NCBI GenBank assembly: GCA_032718475.1
Contig: JAUCBJ010000014.1
Location: 1 to 61,903, forward strand
Origin: Nemertoderma westbladi
Taxonomy: Eukaryota; Animalia; Xenacoelomorpha
Direction of reading: 5' to 3'
DNA: 61,903 nucleotides
The position numbers and the translations under genes are program-made. Of this stretch, positions 150 through 43,172 are shown piece after piece; within the stretch, counting starts at the first letter, position 1; each line of letters starts with the position of its first letter. The notes beneath the pieces are model-generated. The model saw only the letters and a list, made by a program, of their open reading frames with translations. It had not been told where the DNA came from and ran no database searches.

Positions 150-289
150 GAATGTGAAGAGAAAAATTATGTGATTGCGCCAATTCTCGATGCTGCTAAA
201 TATCTAATTGAAGAGAATTCCAAGATCCCGCTAAAGAATAAACTACATCTTAACAACTTACTGAAAGGCAAGGATAACCAATACTACAG
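150..289 (+). CDS. alpha-carbonic anhydrase, penultimate exon (not in ORF track)
   Basis: Preceded by ttctttatccaatAG and followed by CAG|gttaat. It is 140 nt (46 codons + AG): ECEEKNYVIAPILDAAKYLIEENSKIPLKNKLHLNNLLKGKDNQYY(R). Joining to 23125 reconstitutes the alpha-CA motif YYRYNGSLTTP in the correct phase. Confidence 0.88.
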
Positions 290-414
290 GTTAATAAACA
301 AAAATAAACAGTAATACAAAATAAAGATAAGCAAGAAATATTAGAGGCCGTATTTATTGATCGCATCTCCTTACATTAAGAGTGATTGTCCACACACACT
401 ATACTTTTAGCCCA

Positions 415-581
415 ACAGTTACAATGGTTCCTCTAAAACTCTCACCACTTTCCAGAGTTACAATGTTTCCCAAAACATTTTTTCTATTCCCCCCAGAGCT
501 ATAATAATTCCTTTGACTATGTCTCCCTTCTTACAGTTACAATAGTTCACATCGTCCCTTCTTCCTATAGATACAACGGTT
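415..581 (+). repeat. degenerate ~34-40-bp subunits and the first ~72-bp unit of the satellite, upstream of the LINE
   Basis: Successive cagttacaatggttcc, gagttacaatgtttcc and gagctataataattcctttgactat...cttacagttacaatagttcacatc...cctatagatacaacggtt, grading into the array consensus. Confidence 0.8.
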
Positions 582-2166
582 AGCAGCTGCAGAAACAGTT
601 CCTGTATACCCTCGAAACAGGAAACGGGCCCCCTGGACTGACAGCAACATTCAGAAGTGCCGAAATGACCTCTACAAGGCGCAGAAACAGACTACAGCGG
701 CCAAGAATGCAGTTAAGGCTGCATCTAGGTCCCTGAACAGGCAGTACTCTGTTAATTTACAGGAGCTAATAAACCAACAGGTTGATGCCATCAATGATGC
801 TGACGACAGCAGGCAATCATCCCAGGCATGGAGATCGATCAACTTGCTTGCTGGTCGAAAAGGCCAACCAACCACCAAAGTTAAGGCTGAATCACTAGCC
901 GATCGCCTCAACGGTTGGAAGGCCCACTTTGAAAAGCTCCTCAATAATGACAGGGTATTGCATGATAACTTTATAGAAGTAAAAGTGTCTGAGGCATCTG
1001 GCTGTTATCTTTGTTGACTTCTTCAAGGCCTTTGATTCAGTCTCTCGCTCACGTATGTTCAGCATACTTTCATTATATGGGATTCCTAATGAAATTATTG
1101 CAGCAATCAGATCAGTATACGATGGTTCGACAACATTTGTGTCTACTGTTGACGGTGACACAGAACCATTTGAAGTGTTATGGAGCGTCCTCCAGGGAGA
1201 CACACTTGCACCATTCTTGTTCATAATTGTTGTTGATTATGTTCTACGCATGTCCTTAGATCATCATAATGATGATGGGGTGATGATAACTCCACCTACT
1301 GGCTCCAGAAGTCGAGGAAATCCTGCCAAGTACCTAACTGATCTAGACTTTGCTGATGACTTATGAGTACTCTCAGAATCACTAGAGGGAGTCCAACGGC
1401 TCCTCAGCTCATTAGAACATGCTGCTTCTAGTGTTGGTCTTTTTATTAACTCCAGAAAGGCCAAAATTTTGACAGTTAACTTTGAAAGTCCTCAGGAAGT
1501 CTCTGATCGGATGAGCATAAGCTCAAAAGATGGTATGCTTGAGCATGTGGATGACTTCTGTTACCTGGGATCATGGATCAGGAAGTCAGGTGAGGACCTT
1601 CCAATACGTAAGGGAAAGGCATGGGCAGCCTTGAATAGGCTTTCCAGGATTTGGAAGTCACTGAGAATTAATCGGAAACTTAAGGTCCGATTATTTAGAG
1701 CAGCAGTAGTTCCAGTACTCCTCTATGGGAGTCCATGCCGGGCTCTAACTGCTGAGGACACCAAATCTCTGGATGGCACATTCACAAGAATGCGCTACGC
1801 CGTTTTCATTGTGTCAAGTACAATGCACACATGTCCAACCAGACACTATATAACATTGAAGGTGTCCCATTGGTTCCCCCAAGCTTGACACTAGAAAAAA
1901 ATCGCCTCCGCTTTGCAGGACATTGCTTTCGCCATGAGGGCCAGCCAGTGCATAATCTTGTACTTTGGCAGCCTCATGGAGTGAATAAGCATGGTGGACA
2001 GCCCATGACTTTCCTGAGACGCATCTTAAAGGACACTGGCCTTGAAGATGCGGATGATCTAGCAAATGTCATGGGTGATAGGGAGTTGTGGCGGTGCAAT
2101 TTTGTCGATAAGCCGGCACAGCATTCTTAAAAATGCAGCTGCAATGCAGCATGCCGATCCTAGTAG
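582..2166 (+). mobile_element. 5'-truncated, decayed RTE-clade non-LTR retrotransposon (reverse transcriptase region)
   Basis: RT motifs FVDFFKAFDSVSR, VLQGDTLAPFLFIIVVDY, DLDFADDL, VDDFCYLGS and RLRFAGHC are spread over frameshifted or stopped ORFs. It has a tagtag tail and a TSD tacaacggtt at 572-581 and 2167-2176. Confidence 0.9.
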
Positions 2167-5100
2167 TACAACGGTTCCTTTGACTATCTCTCCCTTCTTA
2201 CAGTTACAATAGTTCACATATTCTATTATTCCTATAGGTACAATGGTTGGTTCCTTTGACTATCTCTCCCTTCTTACAATTACAATAGTTCACATCTTCT
2301 CTTATTCCTATAGGTACAATGGTTGGTTCCTTTGACTATCTCTCCCTTCTTACAATTACAATAGTTCACATATTCTCTTATTCCTATAGGTACAACGGTT
2401 CCTTTGACTATCTCTCCCTTCTTACAATTACAATAGTTCACATCTTCTCTTATTCCTATAGGTACAATGGTTGGTACCTTTGACTATCTCTCCCTTCTTA
2501 CAATTACAATAGTTCATATCTTCTCTTCTTCCTATAGGTACAATGGTTGGTTCCTTTGACTATCTCTTCCTTCTTACAATTACAATAGTTCACATCTTCT
2601 CTTATTCCTATAGGTACAACGGTTCCTTTGACTATCTCTCCCTTCTTACAGTTACAATAGTTCACATCTTCTCTTATTCCTATAGGTACAACGGTTCCTT
2701 TGACTATCTCTCCCTTCTTACAGTTACAATAGTTCACATCTTCTCTTATTCCTATAGGTACAACGGTTCCTTTGACTATCTCTCCCTTCTTACAGTTACA
2801 ATAGTTCACCTCTTCCCTTCTTCCTATAGGTACAATGGTTCCTTTGACTATCTATCCCTTCTTACAATTACAATAGTTCACATCTTCTCTTATTCCTATA
2901 GGTACAACGGTTCCTTTGACTATCTCTCCCTTCTTACAGTTACCATAGTTCACATCTTCTCTTATTCCTATAGGTACAACGGTTCCTTTGACTATCTCTC
3001 CCTTCTTACAGTTATAATAGTTCACATATTCTATTATTCCTATAGGTACAATGGTTCCTTTGACTATCCGTCCCTTCTTACAGTTACAATAGTTCACATC
3101 TTCTCTTATTCCTATAGGTACAATGGTTGGTTCCTTTGACTATCTCTCCCTTCTTACAGTTACAATAGTTCACATATTCTATTATTCCTATAGGTACAAT
3201 GGTTCCTTTGACTATCCGTCCCTTCTTACAGTTACAATAGTTCAAATCTTCCCTTCTTCCTATAGGTACAATGGTTCCTTTGACTATCCGTCCCTTCTTA
3301 CATTTACAATAGTTCACATCTTCTCTTATTCCTATAGGTACGATGGTTGGTTCCTTTGACTATCTCTCCCTTCTTACAATTACAATAGTTCACATCTTCT
3401 CTTATTCCTATAGGTACAACGGTTCCTTTGACTATCTCTCCCTTCTTACAGTTACAATAGTTCACATCTTCTCTTATTCCTATAGGTACAATGGTACCTT
3501 TGACTATCTCTCCCTTCTTACAGTTACAATAGTTCACATCTTCTCTTATTCCTATAGGTACAACGGTTCCTTTGACTATCTCTCCCTTCTTACAGTTACA
3601 ATAGTTCACATCTTCTCTTATTCCTATAGGTACAATGGTTGGTTCCTTTGACTATCTCTCCCTTCTTACAATTACAATAGTTCACATCTTCTCTTATTCC
3701 TATAGGTACAACGGTTCCTTTGACTATCTCTCCCTTCTTACAGTTACAATAGTTCACATCTTCTCTTATTCCTATAGGTACAATGGTTGGTTCCTTTGAC
3801 TATCTCTCCCTTCTTACAATTACAATAGTTCACATCTTCTCTTATTCCTATAGGTACAACGGTTCCTTTGACTATCTCTCCCTTCTTACAGTTACAATAG
3901 TTCACATCTTCTCTTATTCCTATAGGTACAATGGTTGGTTCCTTTGACTATCTCTCCCTTCTTACAATTACAATAGTTCACATCTTCTCTTATTCCTATA
4001 GGTACAACGGTTCCTTTGACTATCTCTCCCTTCTTACAATTACAAAAGTGCACATATTCTCTTCTTCCTATAGGTACAACGGTTCCTTTGACTATCTCTC
4101 CCTTCTTACAGTTACAATAGTTCACCTCTTCCCTTCTTCCTAAAGGTACAATGGTTCCTTTGACTATCTATCCCTTCTTACAATTACAATAGTTCACATC
4201 TTCTCTTATTCCTATAGGTACAACGGTTCCTTTGACTATCTCTCCCTTCTTACAGTTACAATAGTTCACCTCTTCCCTTCTTCCTATAGGTACAATGGTT
4301 CCTTTGACTATCTCTCCCTTCTTACAATTACAATAGTTCACATCTTCTCTTATTCCTATAGGTACAACGGTTCCTTTGACTATCTCTCCCTTCTTACAGT
4401 TACAATAGTTCACATCTTCCCTTCTTCCTATAGGTACAACGGTTCCTTTGACTATCTCTCCCTTCTGACAATTACAATAGTTCACATCTTCTCTTATTCC
4501 TATAGGTACAATGGTTGATTCCTTTGACTATCTCTCCCTTCTTACAGTTACAATAGTTCACATCTTCCCTTCTTCCTATAGGTACAACGGTTCCTTTGAC
4601 TATCTCTCCCTTCTTACAGTTACAATAGTTCACATCTTCTCTTCTTCCTATAGGTACAACGGTTCCTTTGACTATCTCTCCCTTCTTACAGTTACAATAG
4701 TTCACCTCTTCTCTTCTTCCTATAGGTACAACGGTTCCTTTGACTATCTCTCCCTTCTTGCAGTTACAATAATTCACATCTTCTCTTATTCCTATAGGTA
4801 CAATGGTACCTTTGACTATCTCTCCCTTCTTACAGTTACAATAGTTCACCTCTTCCCTTCTTCCTATAGGTACAACGGTTCCTTTGACTATCTCTCCCTT
4901 CTTACAGTTACAATAGTTCACATCTTCTCTTATTCCTATAGGTACAATGGTTGGTTCCTTTGACTATCTCTCCCTTCTTACAGTTACAATAGTTCACATC
5001 TTCCCTTCTTCCTATAGGTACAATGGTTCCTTTGACTATCTCTCCCTTCTTACAGTTACAATAGTTCACATCTTCTCTTATTCCTATAGGTACAATGGTT

Positions 5101-8100
5101 GGTTCTTTTGACTATCTCTCCCTTCTTACAGTTACAATAGTTCACATCTTCCCTTCTTCCTATAGGTACAACGGTTCCTTTGATTATCTCTCCCTTCTTA
5201 CAATTACAATAGTTCACATCTTCTCTTCTTCCTATAGGTACAACGGTTCCTTTGACTATATCTCCCTTCTTACAGTTACAATAGTTTACATCTTCTCTTA
5301 TTCCTATAGGTACAATGGTACCTTTGACTATCTCTCCCTTCTTACAGTTTCAATAGTTCACATCTTCCCTTCTTCCTATAGGTACAATGGTTCCTTTGAC
5401 TATCTCTCCCTTCTTACAATTATAATAGTTCACATCTTCTCTTATTCCTATAGGTACAATGGTACCTTTGACTATCTCTCCCTTCTTACAGTTTCAATAG
5501 TTCACCTCTTCCCTTCTTCCTATAGGTACAACGGTTCCTTTGACTATCTCTCCCTTCTTACAATTATAATAGTTCACATCTTCTCTTCTTCCTATAGGTA
5601 CAATGGTTCCTTTGACTATATCTCCCTTCTTACAGTTACAATAGTTTACATCTTCTCTTATTCCTATAGGTACAATGGTACCTTTGACTATCTCTCCCTT
5701 CTTACAGTTTCAATAGTTCACCTCTTCCCTTCTTCCTATAGGTACAACGGTTCCTTTGACTATCTCTCCCTTCTTAGAGTTACAATAGTTCACATCTTCT
5801 CTTCTTCCTATAGGTACAACGGTTCCTTTGACTATATCTCCCTTCTTAGAGTTACAATAGTTCACATCTTCTCTTCTTCCTATAGGTACAACGGTTCCTT
5901 TGACTATCTCTCCCTTCTTACAATTACAATAGTTCACCTCTTCCCTTCTTCCTATAGGTACAACGGTTCCTTTGACTATCTCTCCCTTCTTACAATTATA
6001 ATAGTTCACATCTTCTCTTATTCCTATAGGTACAATGGTACCTTTGACTATCTCTCCCTTCTTACAGTTTCAATAGTTCACCTCTTCCCTTCTTCCTATA
6101 GGTACAACGGTTCCTTTGACTATCTCTCCCTTCTTACAGTTACAATAGTTCACATCTTCTCTTCTTCCTATAGGTACAATGGTTCCTTTGACTATCTCTC
6201 CCTTCTTACAGTTACAATTCTTCACATCTTCTCTTATTCCTATAGGTACAACGGTTCCTTTGACTATCTCTCCCTTCTTACAGTTACAATAGTTCACCTC
6301 TTCCCTTCTTCCTATAGGTACAACGGTTCCTTTGACTATCTCTCCCTTCTTACAATTATAATAGTTCACATCTTCTCTTCTTCCTATAGGTACAATGGTT
6401 CCTTTGACTATATCTCCCTTCTTACAGTTACAATAGTTTACATCTTCTCTTATTCCTATAGGTACAATGGTACCTTTGACTATCTCTCCCTTCTTACAGT
6501 TTCAATAGTTCACCTCTTCCCTTCTTCCTATAGGTACAACGGTTCCTTTGACTATCTCTCCCTTCTTAGAGTTACAATAGTTCACATCTTCTCTTCTTCC
6601 TATAGGTACAACGGTTCCTTTGACTATATCTCCCTTCTTAGAGTTACAATAGTTCACATCTTCTCTTCTTCCTATAGGTACAACGGTTCCTTTGACTATC
6701 TCTCCCTTCTTACAATTACAATAGTTCACCTCTTCCCTTCTTCCTATAGGTACAACGGTTCCTTTGACTATCTCTCCCTTCTTACAATTATAATAGTTCA
6801 CATCTTCTCTTATTCCTATAGGTACAATGGTACCTTTGACTATCTCTCCCTTCTTACAGTTTCAATAGTTCACCTCTTCCCTTCTTCCTATAGGTACAAC
6901 GGTTCCTTTGACTATCTCTCCCTTCTTACAGTTACAATAGTTCACATCTTCTCTTCTTCCTATAGGTACAATGGTACCTTTGACTATCTCTCCCTTCTTA
7001 CAGTTTCAATAGTTCACCTCTTCCCTTCTTCCTATAGGTACAACGGTTCCTTTGACTATCTCTCCCTTCTTACAGTTACAATTCTTCACATCTTCTCTTA
7101 TTCCTATAGGTACAATGGTACCTTTGACTATCTCTCCCTTCTTACAGTTACAATAGTTCACCTCTTCCCTTCTTCCTATAGGTACAACGGTTCCTTTGAT
7201 TATCTCTCCCTTCTTACAATTACAATAGTTCACATCTTCTCTTCTTCCTATAGGTACAACGGTTCCTTTGACTATCTCTCCCTTCTTACAGTTACAATAG
7301 TTCACATCTTCTCTTATTCCTATAGGTACAATGGTTGGTTCCTTTGACTATCTCTCCCTTCTTACAGTTACAATAGTTCACATCTTCCCTTCTTCCTATA
7401 GGTACAATGGTTCCTTTGACTATCTCTCCCTTCTTACAGTTACAATAGTTCACATCTTCTCTTATTCCTATAGGTACAATGGTTGGTTCCTTTGACTATC
7501 TCTCCCTTCTTACAGTTACAATAGTTCACATCTTCCCTTCTTCCTATAGGTACAACGGTTCCTTTGACTATATCTCCCTTCTTACAGTTACAATACTTTA
7601 CATCTTCTCTTATTCCTATAGGTACAATGGTTGGTTCCTTTGACTATCTCTCCCTTCTTACAGTTACAATAGTTCACATCTTCTCTTATTCCTATAGGTA
7701 CAATGGTTCCTTTGACTATCTCTCCCTTATTACAATTACAATAGTTCACATCTTCTCTTATTCCTATAGGTACAACGGTTCCTTTGACTATCTCTCCCTT
7801 CTTACAGTTACAATAGTTCACATCTTCTCTTATTCCTATGGGTACAATGGTTCCTTTGACTATATCTCCCTTCTTACAGTTACAATAGTTCACATCTTCT
7901 CTTATTCCTATAGGTACAATGGTTGGTTCCTTTGACTATCTCTCCCTTCTTACAGTTACAATAGTTCACATCTTCTCTTATTCCTATAGGTACAATGGTT
8001 GGTTCCTTTGACTATCTCTCCCTTCTTACAGTTACAATAGTTCACATCTTCTCTTATTCCTATAGGTACAACGGTTCCTTTGACTATCTCTCCCTTCTTA

Positions 8101-11100
8101 CAGTTACAATAGTTAACATCTTCTCTTATTCCTATAGGTGCAACGGTTCCTTTGACTATCTCTCCCTTCTTACAGTTACAATAGTTCACATCTTCTCTTA
8201 TTCCTATGGGTACAATGGTTCCTTTGACTATATCTCCCTTCTTACAGTTTCAATAGTTCACATCTTCCCTTCTTCCTATAGGTACAATGGTTCCTTTGAC
8301 TATCTCTCCCTTCTTACAATTATAATAGTTCACATCTTCTCTTATTCCTATAGGTACAATGGTACCTTTGACTATCTCTCCCTTCTTACAGTTTCAATAG
8401 TTCACCTCTTCCCTTCTTCCTATAGGTACAACGGTTCCTTTGACTATCTCTCCCTTCTTACAATTATAATAGTTCACATCTTCTCTTATTCCTATAGGTA
8501 CAACGGTTCCTTTGACTATCTCTCCCTTCTTACAGTTACAATAGTTCACATCTTCTCTTATTCCTATGGGTACAATGGTTCCTTTGACTATATCTCCCTT
8601 CTTACAGTTACAATAGTTCACATCTTCTCTTATTCCTATAGGTACAATGGTTGGTTCCTTTGACTATCTCTCCCTTCTTACAGTTACAATAGTTCACATC
8701 TTCTCTTATTCCTATAGGTACAATGGTTGGTTCCTTTGACTATCTCTCCCTTCTTACAGTTACAATAGTTCACATCTTCTCTTATTCCTATAGGTACAAC
8801 GGTTCCTTTGACTATCTCTCCCTTCTTACAGTTACAATAGTTAACATCTTCTCTTATTCCTATAGGTGCAACGGTTCCTTTGACTATCTCTCCCTTCTTA
8901 CAGTTACAATAGTTCACATCTTCTCTTATTCCTATAGGTACAACGGTTCCTTTGACTATCTCTCCCTTCTTACAGTTACAATAGTTCACATCTTCTCTTA
9001 TTCCTATGGGTACAATGGTTCCTTTGACTATATCTCCCTTCTTACAGTTACAATAGTTCACATCTTCTCTTATTCCTATAGGTACAATGGTTGGTTCCTT
9101 TGACTATCTCTCCCTTCTTACAGTTACAATAGTTCACATCTTCTCTTATTCCTATAGGTACAATGGTTGGTTCCTTTGACTATCTCTCCCTTCTTACAGT
9201 TACAATAGTTCACATCTTCTCTTATTCCTATAGGTACAACGGTTCCTTTGACTATCTCTCCCTTCTTACAGTTACAATAGTTCACATCTTCTCTTATTCC
9301 TATAGGTACAACGGTTCCTTTGACTATCTCTCCCTTCTTACAGTTACAATAGTTCACATCTTCTCTTATTATTATAGGTACAATGATTCCTTTGACTATC
9401 TCTCCCTTATTACAATTACAATAGTTCACATCTTCTCTTATTCCTATAGGTACAATGGTACCTATGACTATCTCTCCCTTCTTACAGTTACAATAGTTCA
9501 CATCTTCTCTTATTCCTATAGGTACAACGGTTACAATAGTTAACATCTTCCCTTCTTCCTATAGGCACAATGGTTCCTTTGACTATCTCTCCCTTCTTAC
9601 AGTTACAATAGTTCACATCTTCTCTTATTCCTATAGGTACAACGGTTCCTTTGACTATCTCTCCCTTCTTACAGTTACAATAGTTCACATATTCTATTAT
9701 TCCTATAGGTACAATGGTTGGTTCCTTTGACTATCTCTCCCTTCTTACAATTACAATAGTTCACATCTTCTCTTCTTCCTATAGGTACAATGGTTGGTTC
9801 CTTTGACTATCTCTTCCTTCTTACAATTACAATAGTTCACATCTTCTCTTCTTCCTATAGGTACAACGGTTCCTTTGACTATCTCTCCCTTCTTACAATT
9901 ACAATAGTTCACATCTTCTCTTATTCCTATAGGTACAACGGTTCCTTTGACTATCTCTCCCTTCTTACAGTTACAATACTTCACATATTCTATTATTCCT
10001 ATAGGTACAATGGTTCCTTTGACTATCCGTCCCTTCTTACAGTTACAATAGTTCACATCTTCTCTTATTCCTATAGGTACAATGGTTGGTTCCTTTGACT
10101 ATCTCTCCCTTCTTACAATTACAATAGTTCACATCTTCTCTTATTCCTATAGGTACAATGGTTGGTTCCTTTGACTATCTCTCCCTTCTTACAATTACAA
10201 TAGTTCAATCTTCTCTTATTCCTATTGGTACAACGGTTCCTTTGACTATCCGTCCCTTCTTACAGTTACAATAGTTCACATCTTCTCTTATTCCTATAGG
10301 TACAATGGTTGGTTCCTTTGACTATCTCTCCCTTCTTACAATTACAATAGTTCACATCTTCCCTTCTTCCTATTGGTACAACGGTTCCTTTGACTATCCG
10401 TCCCTTCTTACAGTTACAATAGTTCACATCTTCTCTTATTCCTATAGGTACAATGGTTGGTTCCTTTGACTATCTCTCCCTTCTTACAATTACAATAGTT
10501 CACATCTTCCCTTATTCCTATAGGTACAATGGTTCCTTTGACTATCTCTCCCTTCTTACAGTTACAATAGTTCACATCTTCCCTTCTTCCTATAGGTGCA
10601 ACGGTTCCTTTGACTATCTCTCCCTTCTTACAGTTACAATAGTTCACCTCTTCCCTTCTTCCTATAGGTACAATGGTTCCTTTGACTATCTCTCCCTTCT
10701 TACAATTACAATAGTTCACATCTTCTCTTATTCCTATAGGTACAATGGTTGGTTCCTTTGACTATCTCTCCCTTCTTACAGTTTCAATAGTTCACATCTT
10801 CCCTTCTTCCTATAGGTGCAACGGTTCCTTTGACTATCTCTCCCTTCTTACAATTACAATAGTTCACATCTTCTCTTCTTCCTATAGGTACAACGGTTCC
10901 TTTGACTATCTCTCCCTTCTTACAGTTACAATAGTTCACCTCTTCCCTTCTTCCTATAGGTACAATGGTTGGTTCCTTTGACTATCTCTCCCTTCTTACA
11001 ATTACAATAGTTCACATCTTCTCTTATTCCTATAGGTACAATGGTTGGTTCCTTTGACTATCTCTCCCTTCTTACAATTACAATAGTTCACATCTTCTCT

Positions 11101-14100
11101 TATTCCTATAGGTACAATGGTTGGTTCCTTTGACTATCTCTCCCTTCTTACAATTACAATAGTTCAATCTTCTCTTATTCCTATTGGTACAACGGTTCCT
11201 TTGACTATCCGTCCCTTCTTACAGTTACAATAGTTCACATCTTCTCTTATTCCTATAGGTACAATGGTTCCTTTGACTATCTCTCCCTTCTTACAATTAT
11301 AATAGTTCACATCTTCTCTTATTCCTATAGGTACAATGGTTGGTTCCTTTGACTATCTCTCCCTTCTTACAATTACAATAGTTCACATCTTCTCTTATTC
11401 CTATAGGTGCAACGGTTCCTTTGACTATCTCTCCCTTCTTACAATTACAATAGTTCACATCTTCTCTTATTCCTATAGGTACAATGGTTGGTTCCTTTGA
11501 CTATCTCTCCCTTCTTACAATTACAATAGTTCACATCTTCTCTTATTCCTATAGGTACAATGGTTGGTTCCTTTGACTATCTCTCCCTTCTTACAATTAC
11601 AATAGTTCAATCTTCTCTTATTCCTATTGGTACAACGGTTCCTTTGACTATCCGTCCCTTCTTACAGTTACAATAGTTCACATCTTCTCTTATTCCTATA
11701 GGTACAATGGTTCCTTTGACTATCTCTCCCTTCTTACAATTATAATAGTTCACATCTTCTCTTATTCCTATAGGTACAATGGTTGGTTCCTTTGACTATC
11801 TCTCCCTTCTTACAATTACAATAGTTCACATCTTCTCTTATTCCTATAGGTGCAACGGTTCCTTTGACTATCTCTCCCTTCTTACAATTATAATAGTTCA
11901 CATCTTCTCTTATTCCTATAGGTACAATGGTTGGTTCCTTTGACTATCTCTCCCTTCTTAACATTACAATAGTTCACATCTTCTCTTATTCCTATAGGTG
12001 CAACGGTTCCTTTGACTATCTCTCCCTTCTTACAATTACAATAGTTCACATCTTCTCTTATTCCTATAGGTGCAACGGTTCCTTTGACTATCTCTCCCTT
12101 CTTACAGTTACAATAGTTCACATCTTCTCTTCTTCCTATAGGTACAACGGTTCCTTTGACTATCTCTCCCTTCTTACAGTTACAATAGTTCACCTCTTCC
12201 CTTCTTCCTATAGGTACAATGGTTCCTTTGACTATCTCTCCCTTCTTACAATTACAATAGTTCACATCTTCCCTTCTTCCTATAGGTACAACGGTTCCTT
12301 TGACTATCTCTCCCTTCTTACAGTTACAATAGTTCACATCTTCTCTTATTCCTATAGGTACAATGGTTGGTTCCTTTGACTATCTCTCCCTTCTTACAGT
12401 TACAATAGTTCACATCTTCTCTTATTCCTATAGGTACAATGGTTCCTTTGACTATCTCTCCCTTCTTACATTAAATAGTTCACATCTTCTCTTATTCCTA
12501 TAGGTACAATGGTTCCTTTGACTATCTCTCCCTTCTTACAATTACAATAGTTCACATCTTCTCTTATTCCTATAGGTACAATGGTTGGTTCCTTTGACTA
12601 TCTCTTCCTTCTTACAATTACAATAGTTCAATCTTCTCTTATTCCTATTGGTACAACGGTTCCTTTGACTATCCGTCCCTTCTTACAGTTACAATAGTTC
12701 ACATCTTCTCTTATTCCTATAGGTACAATGGTTCCTTTGACTATCTCTCCCTTCTTACAATTACAATAGTTCACATCTTCTCTTCTTCCTATAGGTACAA
12801 CGGTTCCTTTGACTATCTCTCCCTTCTTACAATTACAATAGTTCACATCTTCTCTTCTTCCTATAGGTACAATGGTTCCTTTGACTATCTCTCCCTTCTT
12901 ACAGTTAAAATAGTTCACCTCTTCCCTTCTTCCTATAGGTACAATGGTTCCTTTGACTATCGCTCCCTTCTTACAGTTACAATAGTTCACATCTTCCCTT
13001 CTTCCTATAGGTACAACGGTTCCTTTGACTATCTCTCCCTTCTTACAATTACAATAGTTCACATCTTCTTTTATTCCTATAGGTACAATGGTTGGTTCCT
13101 TTGACTATCTCTCCCTTCTTACAGTTACAATAGTTCACATCTTCCCTTCTTCGTATAGGTACAACGGTTCCTTTGACTATCTCTCCCTTCTTACAGTTAC
13201 AATAGTTCACATCTTCTCTTATTCCTATAGGTACAACGGTTACAATAGTTAACATCTTCCCTTCTTCCTATAGGCACAATGGTTCCTTTGACTATCTCTC
13301 CCTTCTTACAGTTACAATAGTTCACATATTCTATTATTCCTATAGGTACAATGGTTGGTTCCTTTGACTATCTCTTCCTTCTTACAATTACAATAGTTCA
13401 CATCTTCTCTTCTTCCTATAGGTACAATGGTTGGTTCCTTTGACTATCTCTTCCTTCTTACAATTACAATAGTTCACATCTTATCTTCTTCCTATAGGTA
13501 CAATGGTTCCTTTGACTATCTCTCCCTTCTTACAATTACAATAGTTCACATCTTCTCTTATTCCTATAGGTACAACGGTTCCTTTGACTATCTCTCCCTT
13601 CTAACAATTACAATAGTTCACATCTTCTCTTCTTCCTATAGGTACAACGGTTCCTTTGACTATCTCTCCCTTCTTACAGTTACAATAGTTCACCTCTTCC
13701 CTTCTTCCTATAGGTACAATGGTTCCTTTGACTATCTCTCCCTTCTTACAATTACAATAGTTCACATCTTCTCTTATTCCTATAGGTACAATGGTTCCTT
13801 TGACTATCTCTCCCTTCTTACAATTACAATAGTTCACATCTTCTCTTATTCCTATAGGTACAACGGTTCCTTTGACTATCTCTCCCTTCTAACAATTACA
13901 ATAGTTCACATCTTCTCTTCTTCCTATAGGTACAACGGTTCCTTTGACTATCTCTCCCTTCTTACAGTTACAATAGTTCACCTCTTCCCTTCTTCCTATA
14001 GGTACAATGGTTCCTTTGACTATCTCTCCCTTCTTACAATTACAATAGTTCACATCTTCTCTTATTCCTATAGGTACAACGGTTCCTTTGACTATCTCTC

Positions 14101-17100
14101 CCTTCTTACAGTTAAAATAGTTCACATCTTCTCTTATTCGTATAGGTTCAACGGTTCCTTTGACTATCTCTCCCTTATTACAATTACAATAGTTCACATC
14201 TTCTCTTATTCCTATAGGTACAATGGTTCCTTTGACTATCTCTCCCTTCTTACAATTATAATAGTTCACATCTTCTCTTATTCCTATAGGTACAATGGTT
14301 GGTTCCTTTGACTATCTCTCCCTTCTTACAATTACAATAGTTCACATCTTCTCTTATTCCTATAGGTGCAACGGTTCCTTTGACTATCTCTCCCTTCTTA
14401 CAATTATAATAGTTCACATCTTCTCTTATTCCTATAGGTACAATGGTTGGTTCCTTTGACTATCTCTCCCTTCTTAACATTACAATAGTTCACATCTTCT
14501 CTTATTCCTATAGGTGCAACGGTTCCTTTGACTATCTCTCCCTTCTTACAATTACAATAGTTCACATCTTCTCTTATTCCTATAGGTGCAACGGTTCCTT
14601 TGACTATCTCTCCCTTCTTACAGTTACAATAGTTCACATCTTCTCTTCTTCCTATAGGTACAACGGTTCCTTTGACTATCTCTCCCTTCTTACAGTTACA
14701 ATAGTTCACCTCTTCCCTTCTTCCTATAGGTACAATGGTTCCTTTGACTATCTCTCCCTTCTTACAATTACAATAGTTCACATCTTCCCTTCTTCCTATA
14801 GGTACAACGGTTCCTTTGACTATCTCTCCCTTCTTACAGTTACAATAGTTCACATCTTCTCTTATTCCTATAGGTACAATGGTTGGTTCCTTTGACTATC
14901 TCTCCCTTCTTACAGTTACAATAGTTCACATCTTCTCTTATTCCTATAGGTACAATGGTTCCTTTGACTATCTCTCCCTTCTTACATTAAATAGTTCACA
15001 TCTTCTCTTATTCCTATAGGTACAATGGTTCCTTTGACTATCTCTCCCTTCTTACAATTACAATAGTTCACATCTTCTCTTATTCCTATAGGTACAATGG
15101 TTGGTTCCTTTGACTATCTCTTCCTTCTTACAATTACAATAGTTCAATCTTCTCTTATTCCTATTGGTACAACGGTTCCTTTGACTATCCGTCCCTTCTT
15201 ACAGTTACAATAGTTCACATCTTCTCTTATTCCTATAGGTACAATGGTTCCTTTGACTATCTCTCCCTTCTTACAATTACAATAGTTCACATCTTCTCTT
15301 CTTCCTATAGGTACAACGGTTCCTTTGACTATCTCTCCCTTCTTACAATTACAATAGTTCACATCTTCTCTTCTTCCTATAGGTACAATGGTTCCTTTGA
15401 CTATCTCTCCCTTCTTACAGTTAAAATAGTTCACCTCTTCCCTTCTTCCTATAGGTACAATGGTTCCTTTGACTATCGCTCCCTTCTTACAGTTACAATA
15501 GTTCACATCTTCCCTTCTTCCTATAGGTACAACGGTTCCTTTGACTATCTCTCCCTTCTTACAATTACAATAGTTCACATCTTCTTTTATTCCTATAGGT
15601 ACAATGGTTGGTTCCTTTGACTATCTCTCCCTTCTTACAGTTACAATAGTTCACATCTTCCCTTCTTCGTATAGGTACAACGGTTCCTTTGACTATCTCT
15701 CCCTTCTTACAGTTACAATAGTTCACATCTTCTCTTATTCCTATAGGTACAACGGTTACAATAGTTAACATCTTCCCTTCTTCCTATAGGCACAATGGTT
15801 CCTTTGACTATCTCTCCCTTCTTACAGTTACAATAGTTCACATATTCTATTATTCCTATAGGTACAATGGTTGGTTCCTTTGACTATCTCTTCCTTCTTA
15901 CAATTACAATAGTTCACATCTTCTCTTCTTCCTATAGGTACAATGGTTGGTTCCTTTGACTATCTCTTCCTTCTTACAATTACAATAGTTCACATCTTAT
16001 CTTCTTCCTATAGGTACAATGGTTCCTTTGACTATCTCTCCCTTCTTACAATTACAATAGTTCACATCTTCTCTTATTCCTATAGGTACAACGGTTCCTT
16101 TGACTATCTCTCCCTTCTAACAATTACAATAGTTCACATCTTCTCTTCTTCCTATAGGTACAACGGTTCCTTTGACTATCTCTCCCTTCTTACAGTTACA
16201 ATAGTTCACCTCTTCCCTTCTTCCTATAGGTACAATGGTTCCTTTGACTATCTCTCCCTTCTTACAATTACAATAGTTCACATCTTCTCTTATTCCTATA
16301 GGTACAATGGTTCCTTTGACTATCTCTCCCTTCTTACAATTACAATAGTTCACATCTTCTCTTATTCCTATAGGTACAACGGTTCCTTTGACTATCTCTC
16401 CCTTCTAACAATTACAATAGTTCACATCTTCTCTTCTTCCTATAGGTACAACGGTTCCTTTGACTATCTCTCCCTTCTTACAGTTACAATAGTTCACCTC
16501 TTCCCTTCTTCCTATAGGTACAATGGTTCCTTTGACTATCTCTCCCTTCTTACAATTACAATAGTTCACATCTTCTCTTATTCCTATAGGTACAACGGTT
16601 CCTTTGACTATCTCTCCCTTCTTACAGTTAAAATAGTTCACATCTTCTCTTATTCGTATAGGTTCAACGGTTCCTTTGACTATCTCTCCCTTATTACAAT
16701 TACAATAGTTCACATCTTCTCTTATTCCTATAGGTACAATGGTTCCTTTGACTATCTCTCCCTTCTTACAGTTACAATAGTTAACATCTTATCTTCTTCC
16801 TATAGGTACAATGGTTCCTTTGACTATCTCTCCCTTCTTACAGTTACAATAGTTCACATCTTCTCTTCTTCCTATAGGTACAACGGTTCCTTTGACTATA
16901 TCTCCCTTCTTACAGTTACAATAGTTCACATCTTCTCTTATTCGTATAGGTTCAACGGTTCCTTTGACTATCTCTCCCTTCTTACAGTTACAATAGTTCA
17001 CATCTTCTCTTCTTCCTATAGGTACAATGGTACCTTTGACTATCTCTCCCTTCTTACAGTTACAATAGTTCACATCTTCTCTTATTCCTATAGGTACAAT

Positions 17101-20100
17101 GGTTCCTTTGACTATCTCTCCCTTCTTACAGTTACAATAGTTAACATCTTATCTTCTTCCTATAGGTACAATGGTTGGTACCTTTGACTATCTCTCCCTT
17201 CTTACAGTTACAATAGTTCACCTCTTCCCTTCTTCCTATAGGTACAATGGTTCCTTTGACTATCTCTCCCTTCTTACAGTTACAATAGTTCACATCTTCT
17301 CTTATTCCTATAGGTACAATGGTTGGTTCCTTTGACTATCTATCCCTTCTTACAGTTACAATAGTTCACCTCTTCCCTTCTTCCTATAGGTACAATGGTT
17401 CCTTTGACTATCTCTCCCTTCTTACAGTTACAATAGTTCACATCTTCCCTTCTTCCTATAGGTACAATGGTTCCTTTGACTATCTCTCCCTTCTTACAGT
17501 TACAATAATTCACATCTTCTCTTATTCCTATAGGTACAATGGTTGGTTCCTTTGACTATCTCTCCCTTCTTACAGTTACAATAGTTCACCTCTTCCCTTC
17601 TTCCTATAGGTACAATGGTTCCTTTGACTATCTCTCCCTTCTTACAGTTACAATAGTTCACATCTTCTCTTATTCCTATAGGTACAATGGTTGGTTCCTT
17701 TGACTATCTCTCCCTTCTTACAGTTACAATAGTTCACCTCTTCCCTTCTTCCTATAGGTACAATGGTTCCTTTGACTATCTCTCCCTTCTTACAGTTACA
17801 ATAGTTCACATCTTCCCTTCTTCCTATAGGTACAACGGTTCCTTTGACTATCTCTCCCTTCTTACAGTTACAATAGTTCACATCTTCTCTTATTCCTATA
17901 GGTACAATGGTTGGTTCCTTTGACTATCTCTCCCTTCTTACAGTTACAATAGTTCACATCTTATCTTATTCCTATAGGTACAATGGTTCCTTTGACTATC
18001 TCTCCCTTCTTACAGTTACAATAGTTCACATCTTATCTTATTCCTATAGGTACAATGGTTCCTTTGACTATCTCTCCCTTCTTACAGTTACAATAGTTCA
18101 CATCTTCCCTTCTTCCTATAGGTACAACGGTTCCTTTGACTATCTCTCCCTTCTTACAATTACAATAGTTCACATCTTCTCTTATTCCTATAGGTACAAT
18201 GGTTGGTTCCTTTGACTATCTCTCCCTTCTTACAATTACAATAGTTCACATCTTCTCTTATTCCTATAGGTACAATGGTTGGTTCCTTTGACTATCTCTC
18301 CCTTCTTACAATTACAATAGTTCAATCTTCTCTTATTCCTATTGGTACAACGGTTCCTTTGACTATCCGTCCCTTCTTACAGTTACAATAGTTCACATCT
18401 TCTCTTATTCCTATAGGTACAATGGTTCCTTTGACTATCTCTCCCTTCTTACAATTATAATAGTTCACATCTTCTCTTATTCCTATAGGTACAATGGTTG
18501 GTTCCTTTGACTATCTCTCCCTTCTTACAATTACAATAGTTCACATCTTCTCTTATTCCTATAGGTGCAACGGTTCCTTTGACTATCTCTCCCTTCTTAC
18601 AATTATAATAGTTCACATCTTCTCTTATTCCTATAGGTACAATGGTTGGTTCCTTTGACTATCTCTCCCTTCTTAACATTACAATAGTTCACATCTTCTC
18701 TTATTCCTATAGGTGCAACGGTTCCTTTGACTATCTCTCCCTTCTTACAATTACAATAGTTCACATCTTCTCTTATTCCTATAGGTGCAACGGTTCCTTT
18801 GACTATCTCTCCCTTCTTACAGTTACAATAGTTCACATCTTCTCTTCTTCCTATAGGTACAACGGTTCCTTTGACTATCTCTCCCTTCTTACAGTTACAA
18901 TAGTTCACCTCTTCCCTTCTTCCTATAGGTACAATGGTTCCTTTGACTATCTCTCCCTTCTTACAATTACAATAGTTCACATCTTCCCTTCTTCCTATAG
19001 GTACAACGGTTCCTTTGACTATCTCTCCCTTCTTACAGTTACAATAGTTCACATCTTCTCTTATTCCTATAGGTACAATGGTTGGTTCCTTTGACTATCT
19101 CTCCCTTCTTACAGTTACAATAGTTCACATCTTCTCTTATTCCTATAGGTACAATGGTTCCTTTGACTATCTCTCCCTTCTTACATTAAATAGTTCACAT
19201 CTTCTCTTATTCCTATAGGTACAATGGTTCCTTTGACTATCTCTCCCTTCTTACAATTACAATAGTTCACATCTTCTCTTATTCCTATAGGTACAATGGT
19301 TGGTTCCTTTGACTATCTCTTCCTTCTTACAATTACAATAGTTCAATCTTCTCTTATTCCTATTGGTACAACGGTTCCTTTGACTATCCGTCCCTTCTTA
19401 CAGTTACAATAGTTCACATCTTCTCTTATTCCTATAGGTACAATGGTTCCTTTGACTATCTCTCCCTTCTTACAATTACAATAGTTCACATCTTCTCTTC
19501 TTCCTATAGGTACAACGGTTCCTTTGACTATCTCTCCCTTCTTACAATTACAATAGTTCACATCTTCTCTTCTTCCTATAGGTACAATGGTTCCTTTGAC
19601 TATCTCTCCCTTCTTACAGTTAAAATAGTTCACCTCTTCCCTTCTTCCTATAGGTACAATGGTTCCTTTGACTATCGCTCCCTTCTTACAGTTACAATAG
19701 TTCACATCTTCCCTTCTTCCTATAGGTACAACGGTTCCTTTGACTATCTCTCCCTTCTTACAATTACAATAGTTCACATCTTCTTTTATTCCTATAGGTA
19801 CAATGGTTGGTTCCTTTGACTATCTCTCCCTTCTTACAGTTACAATAGTTCACATCTTCCCTTCTTCGTATAGGTACAACGGTTCCTTTGACTATCTCTC
19901 CCTTCTTACAGTTACAATAGTTCACATATTCTCTTATTCCTATAGGTACAACGGTTACAATAGTTAACATCTTCCCTTCTTCCTATAGGCACAATGGTTC
20001 CTTTGACTATCTCTCCCTTCTTACAGTTACAATAGTTCACATATTCTATTATTCCTATAGGTACAATGGTTGGTTCCTTTGACTATCTCTTCCTTCTTAC

Positions 20101-23100
20101 AATTACAATAGTTCACATCTTCTCTTCTTCCTATAGGTACAATGGTTGGTTCCTTTGACTATCTCTTCCTTCTTACAATTACAATAGTTCACATCTTATC
20201 TTCTTCCTATAGGTACAATGGTTCCTTTGACTATCTCTCCCTTCTTACAATTACAATAGTTCACATCTTCTCTTATTCCTATAGGTACAACGGTTCCTTT
20301 GACTATCTCTCCCTTCTAACAATTACAATAGTTCACATCTTCTCTTCTTCCTATAGGTACAACGGTTCCTTTGACTATCTCTCCCTTCTTACAGTTACAA
20401 TAGTTCACCTCTTCCCTTCTTCCTATAGGTACAATGGTTCCTTTGACTATCTCTCCCTTCTTACAATTACAATAGTTCACATCTTCTCTTATTCCTATAG
20501 GTACAATGGTTCCTTTGACTATCTCTCCCTTCTTACAATTACAATAGTTCACATCTTCTCTTATTCCTATAGGTACAACGGTTCCTTTGACTATCTCTCC
20601 CTTCTAACAATTACAATAGTTCACATCTTCTCTTCTTCCTATAGGTACAACGGTTCCTTTGACTATCTCTCCCTTCTTACAGTTACAATAGTTCACCTCT
20701 TCCCTTCTTCCTATAGGTACAATGGTTCCTTTGACTATCTCTCCCTTCTTACAATTACAATAGTTCACATCTTCTCTTATTCCTATAGGTACAACGGTTC
20801 CTTTGACTATCTCTCCCTTCTTACAGTTAAAATAGTTCACATCTTCTCTTATTCGTATAGGTTCAACGGTTCCTTTGACTATCTCTCCCTTATTACAATT
20901 ACAATAGTTCACATCTTCTCTTATTCCTATAGGTACAATGGTTCCTTTGACTATCTCTCCCTTCTTACAGTTACAATAGTTAACATCTTATCTTCTTCCT
21001 ATAGGTACAATGGTTCCTTTGACTATCTCTCCCTTCTTACAGTTACAATAGTTCACATCTTCTCTTCTTCCTATAGGTACAACGGTTCCTTTGACTATAT
21101 CTCCCTTCTTACAGTTACAATAGTTCACATCTTCTCTTATTCGTATAGGTTCAACGGTTCCTTTGACTATCTCTCCCTTCTTACAGTTACAATAGTTCAC
21201 ATCTTCTCTTCTTCCTATAGGTACAATGGTACCTTTGACTATCTCTCCCTTCTTACAGTTACAATAGTTCACATCTTCTCTTATTCCTATAGGTACAATG
21301 GTTCCTTTGACTATCTCTCCCTTCTTACAGTTACAATAGTTAACATCTTATCTTCTTCCTATAGGTACAATGGTTGGTACCTTTGACTATCTCTCCCTTC
21401 TTACAGTTACAATAGTTCACCTCTTCCCTTCTTCCTATAGGTACAATGGTTCCTTTGACTATCTCTCCCTTCTTACAGTTACAATAGTTCACATCTTCTC
21501 TTATTCCTATAGGTACAATGGTTGGTTCCTTTGACTATCTATCCCTTCTTACAGTTACAATAGTTCACCTCTTCCCTTCTTCCTATAGGTACAATGGTTC
21601 CTTTGACTATCTCTCCCTTCTTACAGTTACAATAGTTCACATCTTCCCTTCTTCCTATAGGTACAATGGTTCCTTTGACTATCTCTCCCTTCTTACAGTT
21701 ACAATAATTCACATCTTCTCTTATTCCTATAGGTACAATGGTTGGTTCCTTTGACTATCTCTCCCTTCTTACAGTTACAATAGTTCACCTCTTCCCTTCT
21801 TCCTATAGGTACAATGGTTCCTTTGACTATCTCTCCCTTCTTACAGTTACAATAGTTCACATCTTCTCTTATTCCTATAGGTACAATGGTTGGTTCCTTT
21901 GACTATCTCTCCCTTCTTACAGTTACAATAGTTCACCTCTTCCCTTCTTCCTATAGGTACAATGGTTCCTTTGACTATCTCTCCCTTCTTACAGTTACAA
22001 TAGTTCACATCTTCCCTTCTTCCTATAGGTACAACGGTTCCTTTGACTATCTCTCCCTTCTTACAGTTACAATAGTTCACATCTTCTCTTATTCCTATAG
22101 GTACAATGGTTGGTTCCTTTGACTATCTCTCCCTTCTTACAGTTACAATAGTTCACATCTTATCTTATTCCTATAGGTACAATGGTTCCTTTGACTATCT
22201 CTCCCTTCTTACAGTTACAATAGTTCACATCTTATCTTATTCCTATAGGTACAATGGTTCCTTTGACTATCTCTCCCTTCTTACAGTTACAATAGTTCAC
22301 ATCTTCCCTTCTTCCTATAGGTACAACGGTTCCTTTGACTATCTCTCCATTCTTACAGTTACAATAGTTCACATCTTCTCTTCTTCCTATAGGTACAACG
22401 GTTCCTTTGACTATCTCTCCCTTCTTACAGTTACAATAGTTCACATCTTCTCTTATTCCTATAGGTACAATGGTTCCTTTGACTATCTCTCCCTTCTTAC
22501 AATTACAATAGTTCACATCTTCTCTTATTCCTATAGGTACAACGGTTCCTTTGACTATCTCTCCCTTCTTACAGTTACAATAGTTCACATCTTATCTTAT
22601 TCCTATAGGTACAATGGTTCCTTTGACTATCTCTCCCTTCTTACAGTTACAATAGTTCACATCTTCCCTTCTTCCTATAGGTACAACGGTTCCTTTGACT
22701 ATCTCTCCCTTCTTACAGTTACAATAGTTCACATCTTCTCTTCTTCCTATAGGTACAACGGTTCCTTTGACTATCTCTCCCTTCTTACAGTTACAATAGT
22801 TCACATCTTCTCTTATTCGTATAGGTTCAACGGTTCCTTTGACTATCTCTCCCTTCTTACAATTACAATAGTTCACATCTTCTCTTATTCCTATAGGTAC
22901 AATGGTTGGTTCCTTTGACTATCTCTCCCTTCTTACAGTTACAATAGTTCACATCTTCTCTTATTCCTATAGGTACAATGGTTGGTTCCTTTGACTATCT
23001 CTCCCTTCTTACAGTTACAATAGTTCACATCTTCTCTTATTCCTATAGGTACAATGGTTGGTTCCTTTGACTATCTCTCCCTTCTTACAGTTACAATAGT

Positions 23101-23136
23101 TCACATCTTATCTTCTTCCTATAGGTACAACGGTTC
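2167..23136 (+). repeat. tandem satellite with a 72-bp monomer (76-bp variant with duplicated ggtt; rare 71- and 34-bp variants), about 290 copies
   Basis: Consensus gtacaa(c/t)ggttcctttgactatctctcccttcttaca(g/a)ttacaatagttcacatcttctctt(a/c)ttcctatag repeats without interruption for ~21 kb. The last partial unit is the true intron/exon junction. Confidence 0.99.
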
Positions 23137-23353
23137 TCTTACGACCCCTGGGTTTAACGAGGTAGTTGTTTGGACCGTGTTCGCCCAACCTCGACACATC
23201 AGCAGCAATCAACTAGCCGACTTGAGAGCTCTGACGTCAGGAATCGATCGTCACCCGATTAGTGGAAACATCCGCCCCTTACAGAAACTCCACGGTAGAG
23301 TGGTGGAGAAAAGTTGCGCCGTTGGAAAACAAGATTCAGATGAATTCTTCTAA
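23125..23353 (+). CDS. alpha-carbonic anhydrase, terminal coding exon
   Basis: YNGSLTTPGFNEVVVWTVFAQPRHISSNQLADLRAL...NIRPLQKLHGRVV matches the alpha-CA C-terminal signature GSLTTP-x-E-V-W-VF...IS-QL-FR-L...NxRPxQxLxxRxV. It ends in TAA followed by AT-rich 3' UTR-like sequence. Confidence 0.93.
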
Positions 23354-24154
23354 ACGGGTTTTCTTGACCTTTAAATTGAGTTGTCGACTCAAAAGTAAAT
23401 ATTTTATTCAATGAACTGCTATTAATAACTCTGTCGGTGTTGTAACGGCGTGTTTTAACTAGACTAGACCTATACTGCTATAGTTAATAGCCATTGTTAA
23501 CCGTATTTTATTTAACCCTACTTCGTTTCTGCTGGACTTGTAGCTGTAGCTACTTCATTTTAAACTGCACATGTTTTATCTGCAATTTTTATCTGTATTT
23601 TAATTAAAACTAATTGCAAGATTTAAATAATTATTATTAATTCGACAAAAATTATTTATATTTTGTGAAATTTTCAACTAATAATTCATTTTTATTTTCT
23701 CAAATATTTCTCGAAAATATTTAGCCTAACTAATTTATTTGTCTGCTTTATTGCATTATATATTTTTAATATATAGTATGGCCTATTCTACCTACATTAT
23801 TGTATTTTTTATTGCATAACATTTTATTGTGTATACCTATTTTAAATAACCAAATCTGAGTTGGTAGTGTATAATATGCAATTCTTGGTGAAAATCGAAT
23901 CTTATTATATATAATATATAAAATATTGTAAATAATGAAAAAAATATGACAATTGTATTATTTTCTGAAAGGATTCTTCCACGACGTCAGATTTTCTGTT
24001 ATGTTTATTTGATCGAGATGGCCGTCTCAGCTTAGCTTTACCTAATAAAAAAAGTTCTTTCATTTTGTCCGAGTTCTACATATTTTTTTTTAATTTACAC
24101 GCAGGTGCTCCAGGTATTGGGTTTTATAAATCACCCAGAGTGTGAGCTTTAGTA

Positions 24155-33423: not shown

Positions 33424-33962
33424 TACGGTACTATGTACCCTACTACTAATCTTATGGTATACCTATATACCATACACTCTACACTCTTACTACTAACTTC
33501 TACTAACTCTAACTTCTAACTCTTACGGTACTATGTACCCTACTATTACTCTCGTGGTATGTCTATATACCACACTCCCTAACTTCTAACCTCTGCCTCT
33601 TACGGTACTATGTACCCTGCTACTACACTCGTGGTATGTCTATATACCACACTCTATAACTTCTAACTACTACTAACGGTACTATGTACCCTGCTACTCC
33701 GGTACTATGTACCCTGCTACTACTCTCGTGGTATGTCCATATACCACACTCCCTAACTTCTAACTACTACTAACGGTACTATGTACCCTACTACTCCAGT
33801 ACTATGTACCCCGCTACTACTCTCGTGGTATGTCAATATACCACACTCCCTAACTTTTAACTTCTAGCTTCTTACGGTACTATGTACCCTACTACTCTGG
33901 TACTATGTACCCTGCTACTACTCTCGTGGTATGTCTATATACCACACTCCCTAACTTCTAAC
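33424..33962. repeat. tandem array of ~75-100-bp units containing two short palindromic hairpins
   Basis: About 9 copies of ggtac-tat-gtacc and about 6 of gtggtat-gtctat-ataccac, separated by ctaact/tactac spacers. Confidence 0.9.
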
Positions 33963-34121
33963 TAGTGCTACATACTATCTTATTATCTACTACTATTACT
34001 TTCTAACTTTCTACTATCTCACTTCTTATTTTATTATTTTTTTGCGTTTTTTTGGTGTGTGGGAAGGGTGTCTTGCCCTCATTCCCACCCCCCTCAGTCC
34101 AACATATTGGACGACTAAACT

Positions 34122-40957: not shown

Positions 40958-41005
40958 TAGCCGACCCTAAAGTCCGACGACTGGGACTTTACTAAATAAC
41001 AAAAA

Positions 41006-43086: not shown

Positions 43087-43089
43087 ATA

Positions 43090-43107
43090 TGGTGAATTGG
43101 CCGGGAA
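43090..43107 (+). promoter_or_regulatory. primer-binding site complementary to the tRNA-Gly(GCC) 3' end
   Basis: TGGTGAATTGGCCGGGAA versus expected TGGTGCATTGGCCGGGAA (17/18, from my recall of the animal tRNA-Gly). It follows aaca-ta and precedes the gag ATG at 43173. Confidence 0.85.
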
Positions 43108-43172
43108 ACCGACGACGCGGTTGTCCCTTTTCCTGTCTCTGTACGTAGCGGATTTCGTAGATATTTTTACCT

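Follow-up and report, generated by a model that had tools for sequence, protein, structure and literature searches.

Mirages, the closest described counterparts of the repeat reported here, are tandem repeats of pieces lying across an intron-exon border of their host gene, and cases are described from amphioxus Adh3, BflGb6, BflGb9, troponin C and PGBD5. In BflGb6 the 3' end of an intron was tandemly duplicated together with the start of the following exon (PMC3087553). According to the mirage passages of that paper, the units measure 10–72 bp in Adh3 and 150–160 bp in the globins, many of them, though not all, carry AG/GT (splice junctions are marked by a slash throughout), and the repeats are unstable in length, normal splicing being undisturbed as judged from reverse-transcription PCR, the acceptor-side case included (PMC3087553). 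The same picture is drawn for Adh, troponin C and PGBD5 in the corresponding passages of PMC3902484. The present analysis concerns 61,903 nucleotides of the Nemertoderma westbladi genome (contig JAUCBJ010000014.1, assembly GCA_032718475.1, positions 1 to 61,903 of the forward strand; hereafter the window), in which a predicted intron of an α-carbonic anhydrase-like gene holds a tandem array whose units carry copies of the gene's own 3' splice site. The array is probably a very large mirage-type repeat that arose from this splice site and likely grew neutrally, its decoy acceptors likely being skipped in one direct splice.

The unit of the array spans the intron-exon border of the host and is of minisatellite size (72/76 bp), the splice signal is kept in many, not all, copies, and a homogeneous interior is accompanied by a diverged edge. 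The amphioxus mirages, as far as the passages compared describe them, likewise consist of tandem pieces across the border of the host, with AG/GT kept in many copies and a homogeneous interior between diverged edges, and the BflGb6 mirage shares the acceptor-side position. Unlike the amphioxus globin and PGBD5 cases, for which 2–7 units are given there, the array comprises about 290 units over 21 kb; its dimeric unit, its multi-kb higher-order duplications and its internal retroelement set it further apart. Moreover, normal splicing has been demonstrated for the amphioxus mirages, whereas the present repeat is known from DNA alone. The class of repeat is already known and its size alone stands out, exceeding that of the published cases compared more than tenfold. 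A literature search that covered few subscription papers returned no mirage of such size and no recursive splicing within a mirage.

Two further systems invite comparison. Human splice-donor minisatellites occur in F7 IVS7, CBS IVS13, 6-16, LMNB2 and PDGF, with 5–25 copies that are mostly silent according to the passages concerned (PMC1557585). As in the array, a monomer of these repeats spans the border (there the first one), and the identical pseudo-sites of the human repeats are mostly silent; they differ in lying on the donor side, where the first site is used, whereas the gene described here would need to use the last. AGGT intron gain, in which an intron is created by duplication of an exonic segment, shares with the array the tandem duplication around AG/GT, as outlined in part of PMC3443670. 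In the array, by contrast, an existing acceptor and its intronic tract were multiplied within an intron having its own donor.

Units, modules and growth of the array

Tandem Repeats Finder (TRF) reported a period of 72 bp at 2158–23136, with 287.3 copies and 91% matches, and segmentation divided 2238–23124 into 288 units, a further unit lying 5' of the segmented block at 2166–2237 (Table 1). Among the 288 units, 211 are 72 bp long, 63 are 76 bp, seven are 75 bp, four are 43 bp and three are 70 bp. TAG/GT is found at 271 of the 288 junctions, the true acceptor counted, and continues as TAG/GTACAA in 250 of these; the remaining junctions read TAG/GC (4) or AAG/GT (1), or have lost the AG (12). 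Many decoys are identical to the true acceptor from about −9 to +12. A preliminary description of this DNA had announced about 290 copies of the gene's own 3' splice site over 21 kb, derived from the acceptor of the gene itself; TRF and segmentation confirm the former, and the match of the unit to the true exon over 12 bases in register supports the latter. Identity up to +12 applies to 98 of 287 units, however, 160 units differing from the true exon at +7, and the strict motif TAGGTACAAYGGTTC, also given as present in about 290 copies, was counted 163 times, the higher number (about 289) being that of the junction-spanning unit itself.

Table 1. Positions of the gene parts, the array and associated elements in the window
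Feature	Position	Strand	Characteristics
Upstream coding exon A, α-carbonic anhydrase-like gene	150..289	+	46 codons and 2 bases; donor CAG/GTTAAT
Predicted phase-2 intron, 22.8 kb	290..23124	+	GT...AG ends and in-frame join
Five older degenerate acceptor modules, 34–41 bp	380..570	+	All end in AG, none followed by GT (0/5)
Broken fragment of a retrotransposon without long terminal repeats, within a unit	582..2166	+	Pfam RVT_1; frameshifted open reading frames; target-site duplication
Array, about 289 units of 72/76 bp	2166..23124	+	Dimers (38 + 34 bp); TRF and segmentation; multi-kb internal duplications
Higher-order duplications within the array	11702..22320	+	Two block pairs
Downstream coding exon B, with the C-terminal portion of the carbonic anhydrase domain and the stop	23125..23353	+	PF00194

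The 72-mer is a dimer of a 38-bp and a 34-bp module, with 25 identities between the two, as good a match being obtained in one of 5000 shuffles. Each module holds a remnant of the exon start, a YTNAY that resembles a branch point and precedes the AG by 20–21 bases, a pyrimidine tract and YAG. In the second module the acceptor continues with TT instead of GT; this acceptor is an intact CAG in 167 of the 288 units and shows a G-to-A change in 109. Towards the 5' end of the intron, the last two of the older modules (499–570) represent one older 72-bp unit. A retroelement in sense orientation separates these old modules from the young array; its RVT_1 match lies at 983–1363 (E = 2.3e-7), it is flanked by a 10-bp target-site duplication (572–581 and 2167–2176), and it adds one GT-less acceptor-like site at 1453. 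Judging from its motifs, we take this element to be RTE-like. The preliminary description was right about the junction-copying unit, and had overlooked the dimer, the old modules and the retroelement altogether.

In all, the array contains 102 distinct unit sequences, with a mean of 2.9 differences per unit, gaps included; 33 of the 72 unit positions are invariant, and at least 52 mutation events are needed. The array is young. Its substitutions are distributed 18/16/18 over the codon positions, and 15 of 52 are synonymous, as compared with 24% expected; from this even spread and synonymous share it follows that the array evolves as non-coding DNA. A coding role was considered and rejected: 210 of the 211 72-mers are open in the phase of the exon, but the substitutions look neutral, and a 4-base insertion bearing a stop is present in 70 of the 288 units. 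When metagenome contigs were searched, the unit pattern gave no matches and the exon query found four distant loci.

The following course of events could account for this anatomy. A tandem duplication of a 34–41 bp piece (about 38 bp) across the intron-exon border would have come first, two diverged copies would then have given rise to the 72-bp dimer, and insertion of the retroelement would have cut off the oldest copies. Slippage and unequal exchange would subsequently have multiplied the dimer, most recently in multi-kb blocks.

The host gene

Exon A is open in frame 0 and in phase with exon B, the two being joined across a phase-2 Arg codon. Exon B matched positions 188–253 of the 254 positions of the Pfam Carb_anhydrase domain (PF00194, E = 7e-18), a domain with 832 matches at E ≤ 0.001 in the protein library search; a Pfam search with exon A alone gave no match. 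The joined reading matched 150 of 151 homologous proteins in collinear alignment, and 116 of the 126 matches spanning the A-B junction were gapless there, therefore no coding exon is missing between A and B. The flanking exons had been described as open and in phase, and the in-frame phase-2 join and these alignments agree with that. Database searches for a protein with both exons gave none among 30 longer candidates (best identity 47%), among proteins of 41–132 amino acids, or among the 150 best representatives (at most about 60% identity). The exons with the three zinc-binding histidines of the catalytic form would precede the window. Candidate poly(A) signals follow exon B, at 23603 and 24044. 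At 23126–23175 the conserved carbonic anhydrase loop reads Gly-Phe, the corresponding residues of many aligned homologues being Pro/Xaa-Cys; the cysteine that typically takes part in a disulfide in secreted forms is therefore missing.

The window was compared, over the region 23036–23890, with contigs of DNA reads from two samples, contigs being obtained from three (X2, X3 and X4) of four runs. These runs depart from the window at six exon positions; five of the differences are synonymous, an excess with P = 0.003 for all changes and P = 0.02 for transitions. The host gene thus appears to be under purifying selection, i.e. alive; as four of the six differences come from a single contig, possibly that of a paralogue or of a divergent allele, the evidence for selection is only moderate. 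No joint was reported for the contigs, which cover 23036–23890, and no exon A was seen at their ends.

Near the end of the gene all three runs diverge from the window after 23339, with at least 255 unlike bases, and in their version, read by eye, the protein ends one residue later, as Gly-stop, instead of four residues later. They still hold 0.65–0.79 of the words of 23100–23800, as against 0.31 expected if the downstream part were absent. The break at 23339/23340 suggests either an insertion in the runs or a deletion in the window.

Choice of the acceptor

Acceptor-like sites were defined as YAG with at least 80% pyrimidine in the preceding 15 bases. The intron contains 444 such sites, 263 of them followed by GT and 181 without GT. 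None of the decoys, taken as final acceptor, reads to the normal stop, all of them stopping earlier (median 55 codons, and 7 for the last three units); a working gene therefore requires that the decoys be skipped or re-spliced. What chiefly sets the true acceptor apart from the decoys is the sequence beyond +12, where the unit is 73% pyrimidine and the true exon 48–57%, and TCTT occurs 3.1 times per unit as compared with 0.66 in the true exon. The acceptor of exon B is the only one of these sites with a full exon behind it. Under direct skipping, the last acceptor would be chosen by exon definition, as it alone is followed by poly(A) signals and by a full exon with a lower share of pyrimidine, and the decoys, with at most 12 exon bases followed by UCUU-rich sequence, would be passed over, PTB-type silencing of the repeat perhaps aiding the choice. 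In experiments with duplicated globin acceptors, made by Reed and Maniatis in 1986, a site in front of a truncated exon was reportedly bypassed.

The preliminary description had proposed a recursive ladder, in which a share of the transcripts would be spliced to a decoy, regenerate a donor and be re-spliced onward to the last acceptor. Each unit would then be a cryptic recursive-splicing exon (RS-exon) whose regenerated donor slightly beats the donor of the next unit, so that decoy splices would be re-spliced tracelessly, and such rescue would have let the mirage reach satellite size in a working gene. This proposal is improbable, the rescue and its part in the growth of the array being judged jointly. 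It draws on the length of the intron (22.8 kb), on the 263 of 444 sites at which a pyrimidine tract and AG are followed by GT, and on the strength of the regenerated donor. The latter was compared with the native donor by the textbook 9-position consensus and by a simple U1 duplex model, neither of them species-specific, using what we take to be the U1 5'-end motif. The regenerated donor, which lacks +4A, +5G and +6T, matches 6 of 9 consensus positions and the native donor 7 of 9; the U1 duplex predicted for the regenerated donor is the better of the two (−7.1 vs −5.6 kcal/mol), and among 2339 GT sites drawn at random from the window 2.3% pair with U1 as well or better. The claim that both donors are comparable is, accordingly, roughly correct. 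A further GT with 5 of 9 consensus matches follows at the junction of the next unit 72–76 nt on, which corresponds to the layout of an RS-exon, where a downstream donor lies within 100 nt (the relevant part of PMC6224609).

The recursive sites and RS-exons of Drosophila and vertebrates, as described in the parts of the literature compared, resemble the array in having a pyrimidine tract and AG followed by GT, a long intron and a GT less than 100 nt downstream. They are, however, single and conserved sites with strong donors, in contrast to the hundreds of recent copies found here, with a 6/9 donor and many GT-less acceptors. Efficient recursion is said there to need a strong regenerated donor, and canonical fly sites are highly conserved (PMC6224609, PMC8184009), which speaks against a ladder here. 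In mammals and flies, furthermore, the exon junction complex (EJC) deposited at the new junction represses regenerated donors, as the passages on this complex report (PMC6224609, PMC8184009). Weak regenerated donors can function once the EJC is lost, according to the same part of PMC8184009, and some re-splicing could therefore take place here as well. The mirage passages of PMC3087553 and PMC3902484 invoke no ladder.

Conservation of AG/GT above its surroundings, which marks recursive sites, was not found within the array: the minimum numbers of mutation events per position are 0.75 at AG/GT vs 0.72 elsewhere (P = 0.67), and P is 0.54 for GT alone. The GT needs no function, because the phase-2 Arg codon and the following Tyr supply it. 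The 181 GT-less sites include the first six after the donor, which a ratchet would have to skip anyway, and none of the five old modules has a GT. With the GT inherited from exon codons and without a sign of selection, there is no support for the view that splicing depends on the ladder or mainly takes this course, and re-splicing of this kind seems less likely than direct skipping.

The early stop met from every decoy would also fit a third possibility, namely that decoys leak as dead ends: transcripts would be lost or truncated, the length of the array would tune or lower the output, and long alleles would be mildly harmful. The human donor-side repeats show some use of pseudo-sites, with leakage to nearby ones in 6-16 and CBS (in the part of PMC1557585 dealing with them), and the second, GT-less AG has been lost by the G-to-A change in 109 of the 288 units. 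This loss is, however, a single one of the 52 events, and its frequency is equalled by several other variants, therefore drift explains it; selection against the GT-less acceptor, considered as a cause, was not supported, the change being one frequent variant among several. The array has, moreover, reached hundreds of copies while the exon is under apparent selection. Overall, leakage into dead ends is doubtful, if somewhat less so than the ladder.

Several points weigh against the neutral repeat with skipped decoys. Direct skipping is itself deduced from sequence, and the published mirages for which numbers are given (globin and PGBD5) comprise 2–7 copies, hundreds of decoys being able perhaps to act differently. 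The human leakage just cited points the same way, and the duplex model does not make the regenerated donor the weaker one. The conservation test has low power, being confined to 52 events within the array with 33 of 72 positions invariant, and the synonymous excess in the exon amounts to six sites in two samples, a single contig supplying four. With these points taken into account, the neutral mirage-type repeat, passed over in a single splice, is still the reading we hold to be probable.

Array length, surroundings and implications

Two pairs of blocks within the array are nearly or fully identical. One has 2516 bp and no differences (11702–14217 and 14218–16733), and the other 3904 bp and one difference (14218–18121 and 18417–22320). 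Such multi-kb blocks would be either recent unequal exchanges or assembly duplicates. If the latter, the assembly overstates the length of the array, which is compatible with any of the readings above; we see a limited chance of this, slightly above that of leakage into dead ends. Apart from the blocks themselves, a rough hand scaling of contig depth, in which single exact contigs were set against their word counts in the window, agrees with an overstatement: run X3 gives about 180 units and run X4 about 50–70, a factor of two being allowed for ploidy and depth not being equal to copy number. On the other side stand the 102 distinct units, the length of about 14 kb that would remain without the duplicated blocks, the high depth of the repeat in two samples, and the differences in length between individuals that are expected for such repeats. 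Runs X2, X3 and X4 contain many unit variants, whose summed depth is 2,600–15,000 as compared with 31–41 on the exon, a sum that does not equal copy number. The repeat is present at high copy in the two samples and may vary in length. In run X1, 0.90 of the words were present and no contigs, those of the repeat included, were obtained, the longest record being 11.6 kb; this run may consist of RNA, may lack the array or may have been filtered, and no inference was drawn from it. Among eight sequencing runs, no RNA run was listed as containing the sequence, which says nothing about expression.

One X3 contig links the region of the old modules to a unit. Other contigs of X3 and X4, ending before 23059, link a unit with unique DNA found nowhere in the window, which means either that the array of those samples holds an insertion or that the same unit occurs at another locus. 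These joints could be taken to favour a genomic satellite of unrelated origin that inserted here, or an intron born from AGGT duplication, an origin that is very unlikely. Against it, the unit matches the true exon over 12 bases in register, old modules are present at the 5' edge, and the intron possesses a donor of its own and a 5' part free of the repeat. AGGT intron gain in particular was rejected, as the unit bears no relation to the donor CAG/GTTAAT or to the 5' end of the intron, and itself includes the intronic tract.

Elsewhere in the window, long terminal repeat (LTR) retrotransposon gag/pol regions occupy 34100–39000, 41000–50450 and 53600–61900, mostly on the − strand, with 45100–50450 on the + strand; going by their motifs, these are presumably BEL/Pao-like. 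A nearly identical integrase region at 41006–43492 (−) and 47532–50450 (+) forms an inverted near-copy. At 30339–32720 (−), open reading frames of 406 amino acids, with Cys/His knuckle-like clusters, and of 297 amino acids, exonuclease-like by eye, probably belong to a mobile element. Nested tandem repeats with periods of 23, 77 and 97 bp are found at 33503–33964.

The array represents the extreme of a described class of repeats, and it is a warning for gene prediction in introns of this kind. If the gene is correctly spliced, the spliceosome passes about 440 acceptor-like sites and picks the last one. Correct splicing, if true, would make the locus a strong natural test of exon definition versus first-AG scanning at the 3' splice site, on a scale well above that of the published mirages compared. 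If re-splicing rescues the use of decoys, recursive splicing would be tied to the expansion of a repeat. The array makes the choice of a 3' splice site directly testable.

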